Below, piece by piece: positions 9,270 to 32,295 of a stretch of 37,624 bases of DNA. A model generated the notes under the pieces. It saw only the letters and a program-made list of their open reading frames with translations. It did not search any database and had not been told where the DNA came from. Origin of the DNA: Candidatus Limnocylindria bacterium (GTDB lineage: Bacteria; Chloroflexota; Dormibacteria; CF-121); assembly GCA_035636135.1 (NCBI GenBank), contig DASPZT010000093.1, positions 1-37,624 of the forward strand. Direction: 5' to 3'. The translations under genes and the position numbers were made by a program. The first letter of the stretch is position 1. Every line of letters starts with the position of its first letter.

Positions 9270-9307
9270 ACCCTCCCCCTCCCCCTGGGGAGGGGCAGGG
9301 GAGGGGG
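9270..9307 (+). terminator. C/G-tract hairpin (CCCTCCCC...GGGGAGGG type) after the oxidoreductase gene
   Basis: ccctccccctcccc / ggggcaggggaggggg inverted arms lie immediately after the TAA at 9264-9266. Similar C-tract/G-tract hairpins occur at ~171-200 and ~4311-4338. Confidence 0.45.
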
Positions 9308-9563: not shown

Positions 9564-10404
9564 TCTCCAGGTCCGTCACTTCTCGGCGCTGGGCTCCACC
9601 TGTGAGTTGATCGCGGTGGGGGCCAGCCCGGCGGCGCTCGAGCGGTGTGAGGCGCTGGTGCTGGACGCGGACGCCCGGCTGACCCGCTTCGGGCGTGACA
9701 GCGAGCTGTCCCAGCTCAATGCCGCCAACGGTCGTCCGATGCCAGCCAGCCCCCTCCTCTACGGCATGCTCGAGGCCGGGTTGTACGCCTACGAGGCCAG
9801 CGGGGGACTGGTCAATATCGCTGTCCTGCCAGCCCTCTGCGCCGCCGGGTACGACCGGCCCTTCCGGCTGGGTCTGTCGGAGCCGTCCAGCCTGACCCCG
9901 CCGGTGACGCCGGCCCTGCCCGAGGTGCTCTGGCTCGATCCGGCCACCCGCACCGTGGCCCTCGCCCCGGGGGCGGCGGTCGACCTGGGCGGGATCGCCA
10001 AGGGCGCCCTGGCCGACTTGCTGATCGCCGAGCTGGGCCAGGATGCGGTCTGCAATCTCGGCGGTGACCTGCGGGTGCGCGGATCAGGCCCGAGCGGCGA
10101 CGGCTGGCACATCGGCCTCTGCGATGGGTCGGTCGTGGCCCTGGCGGACGGCGGCGTGGCCACCAGCGGGACCACCCGCCGGCGCTGGGGCAAGGGCATG
10201 CATCACCTGCTGGACCCGCGCACGGGACTCCCGGTATATACCGACCTGACCGAAGTCTCGGTGGTGACCGATACCGCGCTGCACGCGGAGATTTACGCCA
10301 AGACGGCCGTGTTGATGGGGTCGGCCTATGGCCTGCCCTTCCTCAGCCAGCGGGCGGACCACTTCGCCGTGGTGGCGCCGGCGGTGCCGGCCGCGGCGGC
10401 GTGA
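9553..10404 (+). CDS. apbE: FAD:protein FMN transferase (ApbE family)
   Basis: DLGGIAKGALADLL motif and overall ApbE layout. Start moved to ATG 9553 (MSPNLQVRHF); the upstream part of the track ORF is Arg/Pro-rich out-of-context sequence. Confidence 0.8.
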   Translation: MSPNLQVRHFSALGSTCELIAVGASPAALERCEALVLDADARLTRFGRDSELSQLNAANGRPMPASPLLYGMLEAGLYAYEASGGLVNIAVLPALCAAGYDRPFRLGLSEPSSLTPPVTPALPEVLWLDPATRTVALAPGAAVDLGGIAKGALADLLIAELGQDAVCNLGGDLRVRGSGPSGDGWHIGLCDGSVVALADGGVATSGTTRRRWGKGMHHLLDPRTGLPVYTDLTEVSVVTDTALHAEIYAKTAVLMGSAYGLPFLSQRADHFAVVAPAVPAAAA

Positions 10405-20646: not shown

Positions 20647-21375
20647 CTAAACCAGCCGGGCGCGCAGGATCCAGGCGTGGTTCAGAGTTTTCATCTCCTG
20701 CACCCGGGCGACGGGGTCGATCATGGCGGCCACCTCCTCGGGCTTGTGCAGGACCTTGAGGACCCGGAACGGTTGGGCGTTCACCACCCGCCGGACCACG
20801 AGGACCCCGGGATCGCCGGGTTCCCGCAGGCTGTCCATCAGAAGCAGTTCGCCACCGGGTCGCACCACCCGCGCGATCTCCTTGAAGGTCGCGTCGCGGG
20901 TGGCGCCGTCCAGGTGGCTCAAGACGAAGGCCATCAGGCACCGATCCATCTTGTGGTCGCCCAGCGGAATCGCCTCGGACCGGCCGAGCATCAAGCGGGC
21001 CGTCTTGCCGGCACTGGTCAGGCGCCGCCTGGTCACCGAGCGCATGGTCTCCGACGGTTCCACCACGGTGACCCGGGCGCCGGCGTTCAGACAGCGGATG
21101 GTCCAGTGTCCGCTGCCGGCGCCGACCTCGAGCAGGTCGCCCCGGGCGAAGGCGTCGACCGCGTCCGCCATCTCTTGGAGGTCACTGGCATAGCGTTTGT
21201 CGGCCTCCCGGCTGCCGTACCATTCGTGCTCGAACTGGTCGGCAATCGCCACGTAGTAGGCGTCTTGCTCGGCTCCCAGGCCTTCGCGCAAGGCGACCTG
21301 CTCCAACCGGTCGTAGGTGGCGACGATCTCGTCGTTCTTTTCGGGCGGGACGATTTTCTCTTTCATTGGTGGCAT
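20647..21375 (-). CDS. Class I SAM-dependent methyltransferase
   Basis: Motif I LLEVGAGSGHWT, followed by VTVVEPS and ELLLMD motifs. Confidence 0.85.
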   Translation of the reverse strand: MPPMKEKIVPPEKNDEIVATYDRLEQVALREGLGAEQDAYYVAIADQFEHEWYGSREADKRYASDLQEMADAVDAFARGDLLEVGAGSGHWTIRCLNAGARVTVVEPSETMRSVTRRRLTSAGKTARLMLGRSEAIPLGDHKMDRCLMAFVLSHLDGATRDATFKEIARVVRPGGELLLMDSLREPGDPGVLVVRRVVNAQPFRVLKVLHKPEEVAAMIDPVARVQEMKTLNHAWILRARLV

Positions 21376-21457
21376 TGGGCCATCGCCGGGGATCGCCTGA
21401 GTGGCGCTGGGGCGGCCGGCGGGCGCCCAACATGATACCCAAACGCGTTCCGGGGTC

Positions 21458-21491
21458 GTGACAGGCAGCTGTCAAAGACCCCTTCTAGGCT
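21458..21491 (+). promoter_or_regulatory. Palindromic operator GTGACAGGCAGCTGTCA plus a TGTCAAAG-N8-TAGGCT promoter-like arrangement (leaderless geometry)
   Basis: The palindrome at 21458-21474 is repeated at 31075-31091. TGTCAAAG (21470-77), 8 nt, then TAGGCT (21486-91) ends 6 nt before the ATG at 21498. Confidence 0.45.
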
Positions 21492-21497
21492 GCCGGT

Positions 21498-21800
21498 ATG
21501 GACAACGTCATTCCCTGGTCTCAGATCCATCCCAGCATCAAGTCGCGCTCGGCCTTCGTGGGGGTCGTGGTGATCGACCCCGAGCGTCAGCTCTGCCTCA
21601 GCGAGCTCGTCGACCTCGAGCCGGAAAGTCTGCGTGGGCCGGACGCGGCGGCCGGGGATCTGGTGGCCGCGGTGCAGCAGGCGGCGGCCCGGGTTGCCCA
21701 GGCCTATCGCGCCGCCCGCCGCGGCCAAGCTCCCGACGATTCCAACCCATCCCGACGGACGGCCGGCCTCCGCGTGCTCCCAGGCGGGGCCACCTCCTAA
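21498..21800 (+). CDS. Hypothetical protein (100 aa)
   Basis: ATG ORF with strongly G/C-biased third positions and no recognisable motif. It lies directly downstream of the palindrome/-10 arrangement. Confidence 0.55.
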   Translation: MDNVIPWSQIHPSIKSRSAFVGVVVIDPERQLCLSELVDLEPESLRGPDAAAGDLVAAVQQAAARVAQAYRAARRGQAPDDSNPSRRTAGLRVLPGGATS

Positions 21801-21838: not shown

Positions 21839-21870
21839 TTGACATTATCAACAGATTGTGGCAGAATACG
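21839..21870 (+). promoter_or_regulatory. Conserved ~30-nt block (GACATTAT-N7-TTGTGGC-AGAATACG), copy 1, overlapping TTGACA-17-CAGAAT
   Basis: gacattatcaacagattgtggc--agaatacg (21841-21870) compares with gacattatagaaggttgtggctgggaatacg (26941-26971). TTGACA at 21839-44 lies 17 nt from CAGAAT at 21862-67. Confidence 0.45.
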
Positions 21871-22070
21871 ACCAGCGCGACATCGAGAAGGCGGCGAGAG
21901 AACAGGGATTCCGCATTGGGCGAACCAAGAAGGGTCATCCGGTTTTCTATCCCCCGGATCCCAGAATGGGGCCAGTCTTCGGATCTGGCACGCCCTCGGA
22001 CGTGCGCTCGGTGAGGAATCTCCTCGCCAAGCTTCGCCAGGCAGGACTGGTGTGGCCACCAGGGAGGTGA
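21858..22070 (+). CDS. HicA-like (YcfA family) small protein, putative mRNA-interferase toxin
   Basis: 70 aa. ...EQGFRIGRTKKGHPVFYPP...GTPSDVRSVRNLLAKLRQAGLVW follows the HicA layout (G[FW]-x-x-x-R-x-x-GSH ... L-x-x-I-L-K-Q-A-G-L). GTG start. Noticeably more A/T-ending codons than neighbours. Confidence 0.5.
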   Translation: MAEYDQRDIEKAAREQGFRIGRTKKGHPVFYPPDPRMGPVFGSGTPSDVRSVRNLLAKLRQAGLVWPPGR

Positions 22071-22566: not shown

Positions 22567-25500
22567 CTAGGCGCTGACCTCTTCGTTGGCGACATCGGCC
22601 TGATCGCCGTTGCGGCTGGGGTCGGGCGGTGTCTGTGGCGAGGTGACCGACGGGCCCGGCAGCCGGATGATCGTCCAGTTCCCGGCCCGCTCACCCCGTT
22701 CGGCAAGGGTTTCATCCTTCGAGAAGAGCAGGATCTGGTGCTCCTGTCCGAGCCGCCCCAGCTCGTCCAGCGCCGCCTTCATTCGCCGGCGGTCGGCGTG
22801 CACCAGGGCCTCGTCCAGGAGTAGCGGCAGCGACTCGGTGCTGCCACTGATGATGCGGGCCAGGGCGACCCGCTGCAGCAGGTAAATCAGCGACCGGGTA
22901 CCCATGCTGAGGTGGTCCACATCCTTGAAGGCGCGATGATCCTGCGTGCGCACCTGCAGGCCAAGGTCGTCCATCACCTGGACTTCTCGGTAGCGCCCGT
23001 TGGTGATGGGTGCCAGCTGGCTCTGCAGCTGGGCCTTCATCTGCGGGATCACGGCTCGCCGCACCGACTTGGCGGCTTCCTCCAGGGTATCGATCGCCAG
23101 GTCGTAGGCATGGGCCTGCGCCTCCAGCTCCTGCAGCTGCTCCTGGACGGTCACCATCTCCTCCTCCAGCGAGGCGACGTCACCGATCTGGAGCAACCGG
23201 TCATTCAAGAGCTCTTCCGCTCGGGCACGCTCCTCCTGCGCTCGCTCTTTGGACGCCCGATGCTGATCCAGCTGGCGCTCGAGATCCGCCAGCGGAACCG
23301 CTCGGTATGGCTCCAGGCTGCCGGCAGCCAGGCCCTGCTGGGCTTGCTGCGACTGCCCTTCCAGCTCGCCCACCAGCTTGGCCAGTCCGGCCGTGTCCTG
23401 GTCGCCCGCTACGGCAATCTGCGAGTCGCGGAGCTCTTTGAGCCTGGCTGTGGAGGTGACGTAGGTGTCGACATGGGCCACGGCGTCATCCCAGCGCCGG
23501 GCCGACGCCTCGGGATCGGCGTCGGTGATCCCCGCGGGTCGATAGATGGCCTCCAGCTTGGCTCGGTATTGGGTGGCCTTCTCGTGCTCGGCCATGGCCC
23601 GGTCCGCCGGCTGCCGCAGCTGGTCGAGTTGCGCCTCCAGCTGCTGGATCCGGGTGCGCAGCTGCTGCGCGGCGCGTCCCGCCTCGCAGGCTCCCAGGAA
23701 ATCCTGACCGGCCGCCAGCGCTTCCCGCCGATCGAAGCCCAGCCGGTCCAGGACCCCATGCAGCCGCTGCCGGAGGGTTTCCCGCCGGTCGTCGAGCGCC
23801 TTCTCGGTTCGGGTGGCCTCTTCCCAGCGCAGCTGGGCGGCCTTCCAGGCGGCATCATCATCCGCCAGGGACTGCATCAGCTGGGCGGTTCCTTCCAGCG
23901 CGCCCTCGGTGGGTGCCGGCTGGGAAAGGCCCCAGCTGCCGATCAGCTCGCGCAAGGTGCGGCCGGCGGCGCGAGACCGTTCCTCGAGCTCCGCCGCCTG
24001 CCGGTCGAGCTCCAGGCGGGTTGCGTCGGACCGAATTCGCTGCAGGTGGTCCACCAGCGCCTGCTGCAGCTCACCGGAGCTGCGCACGCCCCACGGACCG
24101 AGAATCTCTCGACGGCGTAACCGCGCATCATCTTTGGCGCGCAGCCGCCGGTCGACCTGCCGGTTGGCCGCGCCGCGCAAGACCAGTCCCAGGATGGCCC
24201 CCAGCAGGCCCATGCCCAGCAAGAAGGCAGCCACGATAAACGCCAGCGGGCCGACACTGAGCCCGACGAACATGACCAGGAAGGCCACGGCCATCAGCAG
24301 CACGCCGACCAGCGTCACAATGCCCCAGGTCCCGTACTGGGAGCGGGAACGCTCGGCCATCGTCTCTTCGTGCCGCATCGCCTCCTCCGCCTGCTGGGCC
24401 GCCTTGATGGTCTCCGGTACCTCCTTGTAGCGAGAGACGTCCTGCTTCAGCTGCTCGAGCCGCGGGGGGAGCTCGGCCCCGGCCCGACGCCGGGCTTCGG
24501 TCGCCGCATTGCTCCGTTCCCGCCACTCCGCATAGACGCGCTGGAACTCGACGTGCCGCGACGTCCACTCGGCGCCCTGGCCGATCAGGCCCGGATGTCG
24601 ATCGGCCAGGTGCTGCACCTCGTCGGCGCCGGTGCGGGCGCGCAGGTGGGCTTCCGGCGCCTGCGCATCCATCAGACTGAGCGAGGACACCAGCTCCCGC
24701 ACCATGGGCTCTTCCTTCAGGGAGCTCGGGCTGACGCCGCGCGCGCGGGCGATCTGGCCCTGGTACTCCTGCTCGAGTTTCGCGCGCTCCGCCCCGAGCG
24801 CGGTCACTTCGGAGGCGGCCTCCGCGGCCCGGGTGGCGAATTCTCGCTCGGCTTCCTCGGTCGCCCGCCAGCGGGTGCGCAGGCCGCGCACCTCTTCGTC
24901 GCGCGCACGCGGGAAACCGGAAAAGGCGGCATGCTCGTGGAGGCGGGCATTCTCATCGGCGATCATCTGGTCGATCTGCTGCACCCGGTCCAGGCGCCGC
25001 CGGGCGTCCTCGAACCGGGCGGTCAGCACCGCCGCCTCCAGCGTCTGCACCACGGAGAGCTCGGCCTCGGTCAGGGTGGCCACCACCTCTCGCTTCTGGG
25101 CCAGCTCTTCAACCGCGCTCCGAGCCTGCCGGGCCGCGGCCAGCTGGCGTTCCAGCTCCGCCAGACGGGCGGCCAGCAGGTGCAGGGGGCCGGTTCGGCC
25201 GCGGGGGCGGCCCACCCGTTCGATCCGTTCCTGTCGCAGCCGGTCCAGGACCTTGCGGGCCGTGCGATCGGGATGGGCCGAGTCGGCCAGCGCCGTGATC
25301 GCTTCCCGGATCGCCCCCGAGTCCTCGATCCGCATGACTTCCGCTCGCGAGATGCAGGCCGTGCCCGTGAAGATGTCCTTGGGGATCCCCAGGATGCGCC
25401 GCCCCAGGGACCCGGTCTCGCCGTCGGTCAAGAAATGCGCCGTCATGTCCTCGCCGGTCTCCAGATCCTGTACGCCGACGGTCTCGCCATCGAAGTCGCG

Positions 25501-25776
25501 GTCCACCCGCAGCCGGCGGCCATCGTCCAGCTCGAACTCCAGCGCCAGCCGAAAGGCGCTGTCGTGCCACGGCCGCCACCGCTCCACGGCCGCCGCGGCG
25601 GCGGGGCCGCGCGTCTTTTCCGACTGGAAGCCATACAGGCCGGTGAGGATGGCTTCCTGCAACGTGGACTTGCCGGCCTCGTTGGGCCCGATCACCAGGT
25701 TCATCCCTTTGCCGAAACGCAAGTCGGTGGCGCGCAGCACGCCGAAGCCATCGACCTGGATGCGCGTCAGCTGCAT
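22567..25776 (-). CDS. Rad50/SbcC-like SMC-type ATPase (YhaN/AAA_27-like) with a central two-helix membrane hairpin
   Basis: Walker A GPNEAGKST, signature LSMGTRSLIYLLQRVALA and Walker B LPLLLDEALVHAD, with long Ala/Glu/Arg/Leu-rich coiled-coil arms. Residues ~484-533 (WGIVTLVGVLLMAVAFLVMFVGL / PLAFIVAAFLLGMGLLGAILGLVL) are hydrophobic; nt 24178-24327. Confidence 0.9.
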   Translation of the reverse strand: MQLTRIQVDGFGVLRATDLRFGKGMNLVIGPNEAGKSTLQEAILTGLYGFQSEKTRGPAAAAAVERWRPWHDSAFRLALEFELDDGRRLRVDRDFDGETVGVQDLETGEDMTAHFLTDGETGSLGRRILGIPKDIFTGTACISRAEVMRIEDSGAIREAITALADSAHPDRTARKVLDRLRQERIERVGRPRGRTGPLHLLAARLAELERQLAAARQARSAVEELAQKREVVATLTEAELSVVQTLEAAVLTARFEDARRRLDRVQQIDQMIADENARLHEHAAFSGFPRARDEEVRGLRTRWRATEEAEREFATRAAEAASEVTALGAERAKLEQEYQGQIARARGVSPSSLKEEPMVRELVSSLSLMDAQAPEAHLRARTGADEVQHLADRHPGLIGQGAEWTSRHVEFQRVYAEWRERSNAATEARRRAGAELPPRLEQLKQDVSRYKEVPETIKAAQQAEEAMRHEETMAERSRSQYGTWGIVTLVGVLLMAVAFLVMFVGLSVGPLAFIVAAFLLGMGLLGAILGLVLRGAANRQVDRRLRAKDDARLRRREILGPWGVRSSGELQQALVDHLQRIRSDATRLELDRQAAELEERSRAAGRTLRELIGSWGLSQPAPTEGALEGTAQLMQSLADDDAAWKAAQLRWEEATRTEKALDDRRETLRQRLHGVLDRLGFDRREALAAGQDFLGACEAGRAAQQLRTRIQQLEAQLDQLRQPADRAMAEHEKATQYRAKLEAIYRPAGITDADPEASARRWDDAVAHVDTYVTSTARLKELRDSQIAVAGDQDTAGLAKLVGELEGQSQQAQQGLAAGSLEPYRAVPLADLERQLDQHRASKERAQEERARAEELLNDRLLQIGDVASLEEEMVTVQEQLQELEAQAHAYDLAIDTLEEAAKSVRRAVIPQMKAQLQSQLAPITNGRYREVQVMDDLGLQVRTQDHRAFKDVDHLSMGTRSLIYLLQRVALARIISGSTESLPLLLDEALVHADRRRMKAALDELGRLGQEHQILLFSKDETLAERGERAGNWTIIRLPGPSVTSPQTPPDPSRNGDQADVANEEVSA

Positions 25777-25800
25777 GCTAAGCCCGGATCCACGCTAGGC

Positions 25801-26892
25801 TCATGGCTCGAAGGCATCCAGGGCCAGCTGGAGGGCGCGGCCGACCGTCTCATCTTTTTCCGCGTCGCCCCGATGGGCCTGGAGCTGCCGAACCATCTCT
25901 CCTCGGCTCGTGAATTCGCTGCCCACCGCCTCCAGGTCGTGGATCCGCCGCGTTTCGTCCAGGAATTCCAGGTGCGCGAACCCGTCATTGCACTCCAGGG
26001 CCAGCGCCCGCGGATCCAGGTCTAGCGACTGGGTTCGTTCGCCAACCAGTCGGGTGCGCAGGACGGCGCCGTCCAGGTGCCGGCTCTCGCGGGCGGCCAG
26101 CACCGCATCGCGCACCTGTTCCCGGCTGGTCATACCAGTCACGTCCAGGGTCTCCTCCACAAAGCGGCGGTGATTGATGTCCTGCAAGTCGACCGACACA
26201 TTGCGGTCATCGCCGACCGTGACCAGGGCCACGCAGTGACGGCCGGTCTCGTCCCATCCCAGCGGCTCCGGGCTTCCTGGATAGGTCAGCAATCCCTGGC
26301 TCATGGCGTTGTGGTAATGGCCGAGGAGCGCCTGGCGAAAACCCGCCCGCTCGACCTGGGCTTGCACGATGGGCGCCACCGGCGTGACGCCGTCGGGGAC
26401 CGTATGCATGTCCGAGGCGTGCAGCAGGAGCAGGTGGGCGCCATCGCCCAGCGACGGCGTGGCCGCCAGCGGGGTCTCGGAGGTGTTGGCCGGATTGAAG
26501 CCCGCCGCCCAGACGCTGACGCCGCCATAGACGTAGGGGCGAAGGTCCTCATGGGTGGCCACGGTGACATTGGCGGGCCAGCGTAGATATCGATACGGGG
26601 AGCTGGCGGTGGCCGGGTCGCTATGCCCGGGCGCGATCAACACCGGTCGAGAGGTTTGCCCCAGCGTTTGGGCCAGGAAGAGGGCGGTCTCCCGGGTGAT
26701 GTGATCATGTTCGAACAGATCACCGGCGCAGGTGATTAGATCCACCTGCTCGTGATCGGCCCGTTCGAGAATTCGCTGCAGCGCGGCCCGGAGGTCTTCG
26801 CGTCGCCGCTGTGCCGCGACCCCGAAGAGTCGCTGCGGAGCAAAGGATCGGTCGAGATGCAGGTCGGCGAAATGGAGCAGGCGAAGGGCCAA
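25801..26892 (-). CDS. Mre11/SbcD-like metallophosphoesterase nuclease (YhaO-like)
   Basis: LLHFADLHLD, CAGDLFEH, LLLHASD and LGHYHNA phosphoesterase motifs. It lies 24 nt upstream of the ATPase gene on the same strand. Confidence 0.9.
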   Translation of the reverse strand: MALRLLHFADLHLDRSFAPQRLFGVAAQRRREDLRAALQRILERADHEQVDLITCAGDLFEHDHITRETALFLAQTLGQTSRPVLIAPGHSDPATASSPYRYLRWPANVTVATHEDLRPYVYGGVSVWAAGFNPANTSETPLAATPSLGDGAHLLLLHASDMHTVPDGVTPVAPIVQAQVERAGFRQALLGHYHNAMSQGLLTYPGSPEPLGWDETGRHCVALVTVGDDRNVSVDLQDINHRRFVEETLDVTGMTSREQVRDAVLAARESRHLDGAVLRTRLVGERTQSLDLDPRALALECNDGFAHLEFLDETRRIHDLEAVGSEFTSRGEMVRQLQAHRGDAEKDETVGRALQLALDAFEP

Positions 26893-26940
26893 AGATCTCC
26901 CGCAAAGGCGAATTGCCGAGAAATTCGGTTCGAGGTTGCC

Positions 26941-26971
26941 GACATTATAGAAGGTTGTGGCTGGGAATACG
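26941..26971 (+). promoter_or_regulatory. Conserved ~30-nt block, copy 2, in the divergent nuclease/WYL intergenic region
   Basis: See 21839..21870. On the minus strand the block contains a perfect TATAAT (26949..26944), 52 nt upstream of the nuclease start. A CGAATT-N7-AATTCG inverted repeat lies at 26909-26927 and GTGACAGG at 26993-27000. Confidence 0.45.
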
Positions 26972-27003
26972 GTGTCCGCGTGAGTCCGTTAACGTGACAG
27001 GTC

Positions 27004-28068
27004 ATGGGGTCGTTTGAGAAGGGGGACCGGGGGGCTCGCATCCTCAAGATGCAGACCCTCTTGCAGGGCAACCCTCGCGGGCTGACTCGCGCGGAGCTGG
27101 CGCGCCGGACGGGGGTCACGGTTCGGACCACCTACCGTGACGTGCGGGCGCTGGAGGCGATGAACGTTCCCGTCTACGAGGAGGGCGGGCGGATCCTCAT
27201 CGATCCCAACTATTTCGTCGCCCCTGTGAAATTCACGCTGGGCGAGGCGATGGCCCTCCTCATCGGTGTCCGCCTGTGGTCGCGATACACGGATGAGGCC
27301 GACCCGGACGCCGCCGACGCGTTCAGCAAGCTGGCCGCCGTGCTCCCGGCACCGGTAGCCGAGTACGTGCACGCCACCGTCGCCCAAATGCTGAAACGCC
27401 CGGCCAACCCGGGCTACTCGCGTACCGTGCAAACCTTGGCCCTGGCGTGGGCCGGCCGCCGGGTGGCGCGCATCTGGTACCGGGCGGCCGAGGCCGACGC
27501 GCCGCCGCGGCTGATCGAGCCCTACTTTCTCGAGCCCTCCCAGATCGGCCACAGCCTCTACGTGGTGGCCCGGGATCGCGGCGTTGGCGAAATGCGCACG
27601 TTCAAGGTCGAGCGCATCGCTCGGGCGGAACTCACGGCCGACACCTATCAGATCCCACCCGACTTCGACATCAACACCTACCTGTCGCGGGCCTGGGGCA
27701 TCTTCCATTCCGGTGAGCCCGTGGAAGTCCGCCTCCGCTTCTTTCCGCCTGCCGTGGCCCGCGTCACGGAGTCGACCTGGCATCCGTCCCAGCGCCTCCG
27801 TCCGCTGTCCGATGGAACGTTGGAAATGAGCGTGACCGTGGCGGGGACGGTCGAGATCACGCCCTGGATCCTTGGCTGGGGCGAGACCGTCGAGGTGTTG
27901 GAACCACCGGACCTGCGCCTGCGCATCGTCGAAATCGGCCGCGCTCTGGCGGAGCGCCACGCCGGTGTGGGCCGCGTCCAACCGGCCAACGGCGAGACCG
28001 GTGCCCGGCCCCCGGCCGTCGGGCGGGCCGTTACAGCTCGTAGCGGGCGTGCGCCGCGGCATAGCTAG
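27004..28068 (+). CDS. HTH-WYL-WCX transcriptional regulator (PafBC/DriD/YafY-like)
   Basis: N-terminal LTRAELARRTGVTVRTTYRDVRALEAMNVPVYEE (HTH_11/DeoR-type). WYL domain RIWYRAAEADAPPRLIEPYFLEPSQIGHSLYVVARDRGVGEMRTFKVERI. C-terminal extension ending VEVLEPPDLR. Confidence 0.85.
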   Translation: MGSFEKGDRGARILKMQTLLQGNPRGLTRAELARRTGVTVRTTYRDVRALEAMNVPVYEEGGRILIDPNYFVAPVKFTLGEAMALLIGVRLWSRYTDEADPDAADAFSKLAAVLPAPVAEYVHATVAQMLKRPANPGYSRTVQTLALAWAGRRVARIWYRAAEADAPPRLIEPYFLEPSQIGHSLYVVARDRGVGEMRTFKVERIARAELTADTYQIPPDFDINTYLSRAWGIFHSGEPVEVRLRFFPPAVARVTESTWHPSQRLRPLSDGTLEMSVTVAGTVEITPWILGWGETVEVLEPPDLRLRIVEIGRALAERHAGVGRVQPANGETGARPPAVGRAVTARSGRAPRHS

Positions 28069-29077
28069 GGTCATCGGCCCGGAACAGGTCCGCATCGACG
28101 CCCCGCCGGCGCGAGACGAAATAGGCCAGCCACTGCAGCGGAATCACGTTGAGGATGGGGGCCAGCGGCTCCGGGAGGGGCGGAGTGGCAAACGTCCACC
28201 CAGCCGCATCGAGAGCTGCGGCCGCTGAGCCAACTACCGCAAACGGCACGCCGATCGCGCTCAGGCCGGCCGCCACATCCTGGGTCCGCGCCAGGCTCGG
28301 CCCCGGCTCGGCGATCATTACGGCGCGGTCGGCCGCATCGATGCTGATCAGCGGTCCATGGAGGACGGCCTCGACCTCGTGCCCCTCGGCGAACACGAAG
28401 GATGCCTCGCGCAGCTTGAGCGCGCCCTCCAATGCGGTGGCGGTCGCCGGGCCGCCGCCGATGAAAAAGGTCCCGCGATCGAACCGAATCTGCTCTGCCT
28501 GGGCGGCGATCGGGTCGCGGCTGTCCTCCAGGACGGATTGCACGCGAGCGGGCAGCCCCTCCATCGCCTCGGCCCAAGCCGAGTGGAGATCGGGCGACGC
28601 GTGCGTCGCCAGCTGGGCCAGGCGCACCAGCGCCCCGACGTGACTGACGGTATGGACCGAGGAGCGCTCCTGCGGCACGGTCTGGACGACGCCGGCGCCC
28701 GTCAACGGCGAGCCCTGGCCGGTGATGGCGATCCAGCGGTCGGCCAGCCCGCTGACGTGTTGGAGGGCCCCCATGCTGAAGCGCTTGGTGCCGCGATGGC
28801 TGAGGACGATCAGGCCGTCCCCGGGACGGAGCGCCGGCGGGTACTGGCTGAACTCGAAGGCCGGGACCGCCCACGCCTCGTAGCCGGCTGCCCGAAAGAG
28901 GTGCTCCCCCACCATCGCGCCGTGGTAGCTGGTGCCGGTGCCAGCGATGAACAGCCGGCGCACGCCTTGCAGCCGGTTGGCAGCCGCCGCCACCGGCTCG
29001 GTGTCCGCCAGCAGGCGGGCCGCCTGCTCCCCCTGGCTCTCGATCGCCGCTCGCAGAAAGGCGCCTGGCTCCTTCAC
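28031..29077 (-). CDS. Double-SIS-domain sugar-phosphate isomerase/aminotransferase-like protein (GlmS isomerase-domain / FrlB-AgaS-like)
   Basis: RLFIAGTGTSYHGAMVGEHLF (SIS motif), a second SIS-like half (FFIGGGPATATALEGALKLRE) and no glutaminase domain. Confidence 0.8.
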   Translation of the reverse strand: MKEPGAFLRAAIESQGEQAARLLADTEPVAAAANRLQGVRRLFIAGTGTSYHGAMVGEHLFRAAGYEAWAVPAFEFSQYPPALRPGDGLIVLSHRGTKRFSMGALQHVSGLADRWIAITGQGSPLTGAGVVQTVPQERSSVHTVSHVGALVRLAQLATHASPDLHSAWAEAMEGLPARVQSVLEDSRDPIAAQAEQIRFDRGTFFIGGGPATATALEGALKLREASFVFAEGHEVEAVLHGPLISIDAADRAVMIAEPGPSLARTQDVAAGLSAIGVPFAVVGSAAAALDAAGWTFATPPLPEPLAPILNVIPLQWLAYFVSRRRGVDADLFRADDPSYAAAHARYEL

Positions 29078-30771: not shown

Positions 30772-31017
30772 TTAGCTCCCGACCTTTAGCTGGGTGGCGT
30801 CGAAGATCAGTACCCGGCCGGCCACCACGCTGCTGGCCAGGCCCTTCCAGGCCTCGGGGTCCACTACCCAGGCGCGGGCCACGACGATGTCCGGGCCCTC
30901 GAGGATCATCCGGGTTCCGTTGCTGGAAACCTCCACTGGGGAGAGTTGCAGCGCCTTGACTTTCTCGATGGCAAGACCCTCTGCCAGGATCGTTCGCTCA
31001 ATTTCCACCCGTGCCAC
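30772..31017 (-). CDS. Small protein of unknown family (paralogue of 19835..20110)
   Basis: 81 aa with an ATG start and GC3-rich frame. It shares the AxxxV[KR]ALQ...VVARAWVVDPEAW pattern with the other copy and is divergent from rmuC. Confidence 0.55.
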   Translation of the reverse strand: MARVEIERTILAEGLAIEKVKALQLSPVEVSSNGTRMILEGPDIVVARAWVVDPEAWKGLASSVVAGRVLIFDATQLKVGS

Positions 31018-31074
31018 TTACGTGAGCCCCAATATGCCGGATTCGGCACCCAACCGCAACCAAGGGCCTCGGCC

Positions 31075-31131
31075 GTGACAGGCAGCTGTCACGACGCCCT
31101 GCTTGACTTTCGCCATGCGTCACGACAGGAT
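31075..31131 (+). promoter_or_regulatory. Second copy of the GTGACAGGCAGCTGTCA(C) palindrome followed by TTGACT-17-CAGGAT
   Basis: Palindrome at 31075-31092 (7-bp arms, 4-nt spacer). TTGACT at 31103-08 and CAGGAT at 31126-31. GAAGGAG at 31162-68 and GTG start at 31174. Confidence 0.45.
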
Positions 31132-31173
31132 GGACCGCAATACCGGTCCCGCCCACGTCTTGAAGGAGTCGCA

Positions 31174-32295
31174 GTGAACGTCATAGATCTGGTCCTGCTG
31201 GGCGTCGCCCTGGGCGCGGTGGGCCTGGCTCTCGGGTTGCTGGCTCGTGGCCGGCGGAGCACCCCGCCCGACTCCCTTCTGCGGTCGCTGGCCGACCTCG
31301 GTGGGGTGAAGGCCCAGATGGATGCCCTCACAGCCCAGCAAGTTGGGCTGACCCAGACGCTGGGCGGGCTGCAGACGGCGCTGCAGGGCGTGGAGACCCG
31401 GATCGTGCAGAGCTCGGCCGGCGTGCAGGAAACGCTGGGACGGCAAGTGCAGGAAGCGCGGGTCGCGGTCGAACGGCTAAAGGCCGACGCCATGGCCCGT
31501 CAGCGCCTCGAGGAAGAGATCCAGGCATCCTCGCGGCGAATCGAGACGGTGTTGCTGGGCAGTCGCACCCGGGGCGCCGCCGGCGAGAACATCCTGCACG
31601 ACGCGTTCAAGCAGTTTCCACCGGGCATGATCGACATGAATTTCCGGGTCAACGGGAAGGTCGTCGAGTACGCGCTCGTGCTCGCCAACGGAAAGCGGCT
31701 GCCCATCGACAGCAAGTGGCCGCTGCCCGAGCTCCTGGACCGGCTGGCTCAGGGGGACCATCCCGATGAGGCCGGCGCAGCAATCTCCGATGAGGTCGAG
31801 CGGGTGTTGAAGAATAAGATCCGGGAAGTCCGCCAGTACATCGACCCGTCCGTGACCCTGCCGTGGGCGATCGCGGCGGTCCCGGATCCCGTGTTCCAGG
31901 CGTGCCGGCGGGCCCACATCGAGGCCCACCGCGAGGGGGTGGTGCTGATGCCGTACAGCATGGCGGTGCCATTCATCCTGGCCCTGTTCCGCCTGCATCT
32001 GCAGAACTTAAGGACCGTCGATATCGAGAACCTGGAAGGGTATCTGCAGCAAATCGAAGACGGAATCACCACCCTGGATCGCTCGCTGGAGAACAGCATC
32101 TCCCGGGGCAGCACCATGATCCAGAACGCTTACACCGATTCCAAGCGAACCTTGGGCCAGATGCGCGGGGCCGTCGCCGCCCTGCGGTCGGTCCCGGACG
32201 CCAGCCTGGTGGTCGAGCACGACCAGGCCGACCTGCTGCCCATCCAGGCCGACGGTCCCGGGAATGGCGCCGGCCGACCCCGCCTCGTTTCTTAG
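31174..32295 (+). CDS. rmuC: DNA recombination protein RmuC
   Basis: N-terminal TM anchor and coiled coil, then RGAAGENILHDAF...VEYALVLANGKRLPIDSKWPL and VRQYIDPSVTLPWAIAAVPDPVF, matching the RmuC nuclease-like core. GTG at 31174 has a strong SD. Confidence 0.8.
   Translation: MNVIDLVLLGVALGAVGLALGLLARGRRSTPPDSLLRSLADLGGVKAQMDALTAQQVGLTQTLGGLQTALQGVETRIVQSSAGVQETLGRQVQEARVAVERLKADAMARQRLEEEIQASSRRIETVLLGSRTRGAAGENILHDAFKQFPPGMIDMNFRVNGKVVEYALVLANGKRLPIDSKWPLPELLDRLAQGDHPDEAGAAISDEVERVLKNKIREVRQYIDPSVTLPWAIAAVPDPVFQACRRAHIEAHREGVVLMPYSMAVPFILALFRLHLQNLRTVDIENLEGYLQQIEDGITTLDRSLENSISRGSTMIQNAYTDSKRTLGQMRGAVAALRSVPDASLVVEHDQADLLPIQADGPGNGAGRPRLVS

Follow-up and report, generated by a model that had tools for sequence, protein, structure and literature searches.

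We report here the analysis of a 17-nucleotide (nt) palindrome, GTGACAGGCAGCTGTCA, that occurs twice in contig DASPZT010000093.1 of a Candidatus Limnocylindria bacterium belonging to the Dormibacteria; the contig is taken over its full length of 37,624 nt and is called the window below. On the whole, with a probability of about 80%, the palindrome can be read as the operator of a single WYL-domain regulator encoded in the same window at 27004-28068, which would be a damage-responsive activator of a repair regulon. This reading is carried by the motif and its fixed geometry, by its conservation, by the content of the regulon, by the uniqueness and linkage of the WYL gene, and by the base-reading arginines of the WYL protein. 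We infer that the 27004-28068 protein binds the dyad, that it activates rather than represses, that single-stranded DNA (ssDNA) is its signal, and where transcription starts. In the mechanism proposed, each of the two winged-helix domains of a homodimer would sit on one of the outer triplets, GAC and GTC, which are 8 bp apart in the sequence [T/C]GACAG-rCwG-CTGTC[A/G]. The dyad would occupy the place of the -35 element, from about -40 to -24, with its proximal GTC lying 12 nt upstream of a housekeeping-type -10, and since these promoters lack a usable -35 box, RNA polymerase would be recruited only with the help of the bound regulator. If DriD, DdaA and PafBC are a guide, the binding of ssDNA to the WYL domain after DNA damage would switch the regulator on, and transcription would then start at or beside the start codon, giving the leaderless mRNAs of a small repair regulon. 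The main elements in the window are as follows, with scores from a position weight matrix (PWM).

21458-21474, + strand: operator copy 1 (predicted), GTGACAG-GCAG-CTGTCA with the core GAC-N8-GTC; exact match, PWM score 40.5.
21486-21491, + strand: the -10-like hexamer TAGGCT, 11 nt past the dyad and with a start codon 6 nt on.
31075-31091, + strand: operator copy 2 (predicted), upstream of rmuC; exact match, PWM score 38.6.
27004-28068, + strand: the WYL regulator, with the order winged helix-turn-helix (wHTH), three-helix bundle, WYL, WCX; the proposed dyad-binding activator.

A search of the window finds the 17-mer exactly at these two positions on the + strand, and the PWM scan likewise returns the two copies as the only full sites. 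An earlier annotation made from the letters of the window, below called the sequence-only reading, had described a 19-mer occurring twice; the two copies stand, while the block that they share is 18 nt long when the preceding c is included (21457-21474 and 31074-31091). At up to three mismatches the 17-mer is observed three times where 0.07 matches are expected, and none of 100 dinucleotide-preserving shuffles of the window reaches three. Both copies are located in divergent intergenic regions, as had been claimed, the first one between a methyltransferase gene and a gene of 100 amino acids (aa) on the + strand, and the second one between an open reading frame (ORF) of 81 aa and rmuC, also on the + strand. 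The two genes on the left sides are the following.

20647-21375, - strand: the methyltransferase gene.
30772-31017, - strand: the 81-aa ORF.

The earlier description of the two promoters is also accurate. Copy 1 continues as TGTCAAAG-N8-TAGGCT, and the ATG of the 100-aa gene at 21498 follows 6 nt after the hexamer; taking the A of this ATG as +1, the hexamer extends from -12 to -7, the GTC from about -27 to -25 and the dyad from about -40 to -24. Copy 2 precedes rmuC with TTGACT (31103-31108) in the hexamer position. In duplex form the dyad, as the candidate target of the regulator, is carried by GTGACAGGCAGCTGTCAC. A bidirectional use of the dyad was considered and rejected, since at both copies in the window the N11 position of the reverse strand lacks a -10-like hexamer and the spacer has the same sense-strand form, rCwG, in all sites. 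Also rejected was a near-copy at 9695-9711, which differs at three positions, is part of a coding region and does not reach a PWM score of 10. As for the 8-nt half-site GTGACAGG, the sequence-only reading was right in counting four + strand copies, but this number is not significant, with 1.40 expected and at least four found in 7 of the 100 shuffles. The copies at 22067 and 26994 are therefore dropped as chance occurrences, having neither a partner half-site nor a hexamer at the right spacing, and the one at 22067 consists of a GGGAGG ribosome-binding site and the TGA stop of the upstream gene.

Beyond the window, the motif is shown to recur over the source genome, an assembly of 2.57 Mb in 427 contigs (83% complete, 67% G+C) in which the window is contig C93. 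Five exact copies of the 17-mer are present, together with further ones having 1-3 mismatches. With a PWM built from the sites in relatives, 12 sites score from 20.6 to 43.4 and the next best matches score 15.0 and 13.1, while the reversed genome, taken as control, gives one match at 12.3; a genome scan with the palindrome, which the sequence-only reading had put forward, thus separates 12 sites with scores above 20 from a control maximum of 12.3. The shorter half-motif, for which it had put forward TGTCA-N11-TANNNT and which was scanned as TGTCR-N11-TAnnnT, is not enriched (13 matches vs 13 in the control). The mycobacterial half-motif alone is accordingly rejected as a signal, and CTGTCR-N11-[TC]AnnnT without the distal half falls mostly inside genes.

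Among relatives, the motif is found in all 24 other genomes searched of the same family, with 1-13 sites each at no more than one mismatch, and the reversed pattern has 3 matches in 41 genomes. In a sample of 150 genomes over the wider phylum the matches stay at the background level, except in the source family, with 8-16 sites per genome, and in one genus of a second family, with 4 each. Footprints show the dyad kept before the orthologous 100-aa gene in 17 related loci and before rmuC in 19. About 20 loci were examined; their WYL proteins are 69-76% identical to the query and the dyads are retained, with the intergenic sequence around them and the orientation of the 100-aa gene varying from locus to locus. 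Before the 100-aa gene of the relatives, the dyad is followed by TAGGCT, TAGCCT or TATCGT and then, 6-7 nt on, by ATG.

The geometry is examined on 96 distinct activation-type sites, collected from the family loci and the source genome and spanning at least nine unrelated gene families; 19 of them precede rmuC and 77 do not. The consensus over the 96 sites is the [T/C]GACAG-rCwG-CTGTC[A/G] given above, which is also valid in the second family, and GAC is separated from GTC by 8 bp in every site. In agreement with this, GACAG.{4}CTGTC gives 20 strand-hits, and spacers of 2, 3, 5 and 6 nt give 0-4. The enrichment at promoters that the sequence-only reading had anticipated is evident in the 77 non-rmuC sites: a hexamer [T/C]AnnnT is located exactly 11 nt past the 16-mer in 71 of them, where offsets shifted by -4 to +4 give 0-3, and a start codon lies 6-7 nt beyond the hexamer in 57. 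The latter is the geometry of leaderless mRNAs, and the transcripts predicted from it would be leaderless. The distance from the proximal GTC to the -10 is hence 12 nt (GTC, one further nt and N11). The spacer of the dyad reads rCwG on the sense strand in all sites, and the CAG(A/G)CA at a distance of 18 nt to the -10 is similar to a weak -35, which may account for this asymmetry. With respect to the fixed distance without a good -35, the rmuC sites and those of mraZ, both discussed below, are the exceptions.

A bipartite site with fixed spacing and no canonical -35 might also be expected if the block were an extended upstream element of alternative-sigma promoters working without a separate activator. 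This is very unlikely in view of the two-fold symmetry, which points to a dimeric DNA-binding protein, and of the downstream hexamers, which are of the housekeeping type (TAnnnT or CAnnAT); moreover the distal half, although TTGACA-like, is not a usable -35, and the 22 nt between it and the -10 do not correspond to any known sigma spacing.

We then turn to the regulator. The sequence-only reading had named the gene at 27004-28068 as the WYL regulator, and its product proves to be the sole WYL protein of the genome, being the only match to PF13280; the Pfam matches are HTH_11 (9.9e-9), WYL (1.1e-11) and WCX (1e-18), the domain set of a class A WYL factor. Relatives that are at least 90% complete mostly have one close copy per genome. 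The neighbours of the gene are an SbcD-like gene and a GlmS-like gene, with no WYL paralogue adjacent.

22567-26892, - strand: an operon of SbcC-like and SbcD-like genes (Pfam AAA_23/SMC_N and Metallophos), divergent from the WYL gene and with no dyad in its promoter region.
28031-29077, - strand: the GlmS-like gene, with a SIS domain.

The WYL gene of the source family has a motif promoter on either side in the fetched loci, upstream within about 6 kb and downstream at 1.3-3.8 kb. The WYL homologue of the second family has an identity of 31-34%, and there a motif promoter follows the end of the match at 19-22 bp. No dyad is found in the intergenic region between the WYL and SbcD-like genes, either by reading the sequence or by the PWM scan, and this absence upstream of the WYL gene fits DriD and PafBC, whose levels stay unchanged on damage. 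The gene itself has a canonical-looking promoter without dyad at 26925-26975.

Compared with solved structures by sequence, the regulator is equally close to PafC (1.4e-12) and DriD (1.5e-12). Its AlphaFold2 (AF2) model has the order wHTH, three helices, WYL, WCX, matching DriD, and the best fold matches are DriD (5e-17) and PafBC (1e-14), followed by BrxR and CapW. In the crystal structure of DriD with DNA, R37 and R41 read two guanines of GTC/GAC, and their mutation abolishes binding (PMC10853764). A HMMER alignment places R41 and R45 of the query on these two arginines; over 18 orthologues R41 and T42 do not vary and R45 is kept in at least 90%, and the outer triplets of the dyad, GAC and GTC, are the ones that the DriD arginines read. 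In addition, the protein matches the first 312 positions of the PADLOC model 'Cas3c' with an E value of 1e-79, probably reflecting an HTH-WYL-WCX module fused to Cas3 in that model.

The genes behind the sites are mostly given by the list below, each having a site upstream.

radA: contig C209 and four relatives.
recJ: contig C318.
rmuC: the window.
yajQ (DUF520): contig C179.
DUF559 endonuclease-like gene: contig C77.
RecB-like RNase_H_2 nuclease gene: the related genome G001.
DUF222+HNH genes: many copies.
Orphan 100-aa gene: the window.

The site on C179 leads into yajQ-cinA-recA, which are tightly packed on one strand, and recA probably belongs to the regulon through this operon. Sites upstream of repair genes, for which the sequence-only reading had proposed to look, are thus seen with radA, recJ, rmuC, the recA operon and nucleases. 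Two genes for TnpB, an RNA-guided endonuclease, also stand behind promoters of the motif type, on C289 (minus strand, PWM score 27.4) and at the end of C415 (24.4), in the form TTGACACACAGTTGTCA-N11-CATGAT-7-GTG. In the second family, the sites precede cinA, rpsF, an ArdC-like gene, an excisionase-type HTH gene and a 71-aa gene. A separate observation is a tandem array in G001 (locus L059, 1435-1915, on its contig C171), which has four units of 120 bp, in each of which a motif-like TGACATGCAGCTGTCG is followed by N11 and TAGCCT and, some 70 nt on, by a G+C-rich hairpin; the units may give damage-inducible small transcripts.

Selfish nuclease genes make up 5 of the 12 sites of the source genome (three DUF222-HNH and two TnpB), and some of these sites have shared flanks, as would be the case if the 17-mer were part of a mobile repeat, such as a miniature inverted-repeat transposable element (MITE), a repetitive extragenic palindrome (REP) or the end of an insertion sequence, that had landed upstream of genes. 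However, the flanks of the radA, recJ, rmuC, yajQ, DUF559 and 100-aa sites are unrelated, and the sites keep orthologous positions across genera, so that for the single-copy genes this explanation is excluded; as the conservation is in addition limited to the dyad and the hexamer, a mobile origin of the motif as a whole is extremely improbable.

The presence of the recA operon, radA and recJ would equally suit a classical SOS regulon, with the dyad as the LexA operator of the lineage, and a LexA is indeed present on contig C282. Nevertheless, the region upstream of lexA (C282, 772-815 and downstream) has two exact CGAAC-N4-GTTCG boxes together with degenerate ones, and no TGACAG dyad. A CGAAC-N4-GTTCG box is also found beside a second recA-like gene (C415, 2076), suggesting a separate LexA regulon, and the position of the dyad is fixed relative to the -10, where SOS boxes vary. 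The LexA explanation is for these reasons highly improbable, and a classical SOS system appears to coexist with the WYL regulon.

Among the genes of the predicted regulon, conservation is highest for the 100-aa gene, which in all cases is linked to the WYL locus.

21498-21800, + strand: the orphan 100-aa gene, whose protein starts with MDNVIPWSQIHPSIKS... and has LRVLPGG near its C-terminus.

Its protein has no match in Pfam, NCBIfam or PADLOC, and an AF2 model of it (predicted local distance difference test score, pLDDT, of 72.5) finds no fold match in PDB better than an E value of 0.96. There are 46 homologues, all annotated as hypothetical and apparently confined to the source lineage. Their alignment shows an almost invariant N-terminus M-G/D-NVIPWSQIHPSIKS, a long helix, and the conserved LRVLPGG followed by a few variable residues. 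Being the most conserved target linked to the regulator, the protein is the best candidate for a lineage-specific effector of the damage response. Nearby, a HicA-like gene has a canonical-looking promoter TTGACA-N17-CAGAAT at 21839-21865, without dyad.

The leader of rmuC deserves a closer look, with the following elements.

31103-31108, + strand: the hexamer TTGACT at the N11 (-10) position, invariant in the 19 rmuC sites, the next two bases being mostly T.
31115-31177, + strand: an upstream ORF of 20 codons, starting 6 nt past TTGACT, with its TGA overlapping the GTG of rmuC (GTGA).
31126-31131, + strand: CAGGAT, a possible -10 of rmuC, 17 nt past TTGACT; CACCAT in other genera.
31174-32295, + strand: rmuC, 373 aa from the GTG, with a Pfam RmuC match (E value 8.4e-11) and a preceding GAAGGAG ribosome-binding site.

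Two readings are considered. TTGACT-N17-CAGGAT/CACCAT may be a canonical promoter, with the dyad centred near -55, or TTGACT may stand at the -10 position of a regulator-dependent promoter, with the ATG at 31115 opening the short ORF. Of 19 distinct rmuC loci, 16 have the upstream ORF open, in frame and with its full length of 20 codons; the exceptions are L037, where it is two codons shorter (ATGA overlap), L033, where the start is one base later, and L045, with AGG for the first start. The yajQ leader (C179, minus strand, 24-80 nt downstream of the dyad) has a GTG 7 nt past TACCAT and an 18-codon ORF whose stop overlaps the ATG of yajQ (ATGA), and this shared design speaks for the regulator-dependent promoter at rmuC, while the lack of an A at position 2 of TTGACT speaks against it. 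The short leaderless ORFs of the rmuC and yajQ-cinA-recA transcripts would then be an obligatory coupling device for those regulon genes that are not themselves leaderless. Separately, a REP-like G+C-rich hairpin, CTCCCTCCCCC...GGGGAGGG..., occurs in at least 80 copies across the source genome, with a related copy at 9271-9294 of the window and another in the yajQ leader.

The dyad is also identified in a different position before mraZ, which heads the cluster of cell-division and cell-wall genes. Based on 12 fetched mraZ loci, which represent four genera of the family (L010, L013, L017, L019, L021-L027 and L029), the mraZ promoter contains tTGACAGGCA(G/C)CTGTCG-cgg-TGg-TAACTT about 75-90 nt before the mraZ ATG, with three GTGGG MraZ boxes downstream of the dyad. 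This is a canonical TTGACA-N17-TAACTT promoter, in which the dyad lies 5 bp nearer to the -10 than in the repair promoters. In the own genus of the window (L122), the mraZ promoter keeps GAC-N8-GTC only. No dyad is found in the mraZ promoters of two other families of the class, and the mraZ dyad is therefore specific to the source family.

A possible, though doubtful, extension of the operator reading is that the site is used in two registers, activating for the repair genes and repressing for mraZ, together with the related short-ORF coupling device. The repair genes would be driven from the activating register, where 12 nt separate the proximal GTC from the -10; in the register of mraZ, the damage-activated regulator would block sigma region 4 and shut down the division genes. 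If true, the use of two registers would amount to a damage checkpoint without a SulA-like inhibitor.

The same site bears on the question whether a different dimeric transcription factor binds the dyad, or whether the dyad is mainly a repressor operator, the WYL gene then being an unrelated neighbour. Like many repressor sites, the dyad overlaps with DNA of the core promoter, and its place inside the canonical mraZ promoter is more typical of repression. On the other hand, the invariant 11-nt offset without a usable -35 is the pattern of an activator-dependent promoter, where repressor sites usually vary; the outer GAC and GTC, with the conserved arginine pair, match WYL regulators; and the linkage of WYL gene and motif holds in two families with different gene orders. 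We thus consider another factor unlikely and retain the single WYL protein as the proposed activator.

Several points weigh against this assignment. The counts of sites pool orthologous and paralogous promoters, hence they are not independent events. The TTGACT of rmuC lacks the A at position 2 that is expected of a -10 box, and is possibly a -35, which would put the dyad near -55. Another WYL gene could be missing from the assembly, the genome being 83% complete. For the regulator, the AF2 model is of only moderate quality, with a pLDDT of 64 and a predicted template modelling score (pTM) of 0.38. Finally, the half-sites are 8 bp apart here, and 7 in DriD and DdaA.

Below we compare the system with the WYL regulators known. 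DriD of Caulobacter crescentus is a homodimeric wHTH-WYL-WCX activator of an SOS-independent damage response (PMC9186387, PMC10853764, PMC13004042), and its site ATACGAC(N7)GTCGTAT covers the place of the -35 and keeps a constant distance to the -10 (PMC13004042). In our own alignment of the didA, CCNA_03891 and bapE oligonucleotides (PMC13004042), the proximal GTC/GGC lies 12 nt before a shared CAAnnn. The likeness to DriD extends to the following: an apparently single-gene regulator, for which DriD is also the best fold match; a pseudo-palindrome with outer CGAC/GTCG triplets and the aligned arginine pair; a site over the -35 at one distance from the -10, in promoters without a good -35; a regulon with recJ and recA; and a regulator gene that is not behind its own activated promoter. 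Unlike DriD, whose dyad centre is A+T-rich, the centre here is G+C-rich and asymmetric (rCwG), and most target mRNAs are predicted to be leaderless. The two proteins have a sequence identity of about 22% and belong to different groups, Alphaproteobacteria for DriD and a Dormibacteria/Chloroflexota-related lineage here.

DdaA, of Acinetobacter and other Moraxellaceae, is a homodimeric class A WYL activator with the motif CGWCA-N5-TGWCG, equivalent to CGAC-N7-GTCG, about 50 bp upstream of the start site, and with a regulon of recA, ssb, uvrA and other repair genes plus mobile or defence genes (PMC12392091). The palindrome of GAC and GTC and the mixing of repair with mobile genes are shared with the present system, apart from the half-site spacing of N8 in place of N7. 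SiwR of Mycobacterium smegmatis is likewise a homodimeric WYL activator, dependent on the -26 region and responsive to genotoxic stress (PMC10693628). It differs in controlling only the adjacent dinB-like operon and in its triplet GGA, against a dispersed regulon and GTC here.

The PafBC promoters (RecA-NDp, with a '-26 element') have the consensus tGTCgg(N10)tA(N3)T without a -35 or a further upstream element (PMC8635444). PafBC is a heterodimer from two adjacent genes, in which only PafB contacts DNA and PafC touches sigma region 4 (PMC8635444, PMC11804915). The sequence-only reading had taken copy 1 as a WYL/PafBC-type damage promoter. As a WYL-type promoter this is supported, the condition named for its refutation, a lack of enrichment at promoters or repair genes, having been examined and the outcome being in its favour. 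With PafBC in particular, the site shares the proximal geometry: 12 nt lie between the GTC and a TAnnnT -10 downstream of it, a -35 is missing, and many targets are, or here would be, leaderless. The PafBC mode itself does not hold, with one WYL gene, a GAC-N8-GTC dyad that requires its distal half-site TGACAG, and no enrichment of the half-motif by itself; from the dyad and the single WYL gene, the homodimeric mode of DriD and DdaA fits better than a PafB/PafC heterodimer. The mycobacterial PafBC regulon also has radA, recA and multi-copy DUF222-HNH ('13E12') genes. Our literature search found no paper combining PafBC with 13E12, or Dormibacterota with WYL.

As judged from its sequence features, the predicted site is therefore of the DriD/DdaA class, with a spacing one bp longer and with the proximal geometry of PafBC, and it is not a PafBC system. 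It would be a new example of a recently described type of switch and not a new type, extending the ssDNA-sensing WYL activators to the Dormibacteria, an uncultured soil lineage. The combined features support one ancestral promoter geometry for the WYL systems. The regulon is computable, with about a dozen promoters per genome, and would flag damage-inducible genes for annotators, the 100-aa family included, and the dyad offers a natural N8-spaced variant for probing how the spacing of half-sites is read. The Dormibacteria would in this way join the groups in which such regulators are described, that is PafBC in Actinobacteria, DriD in Alphaproteobacteria and DdaA in Moraxellaceae.

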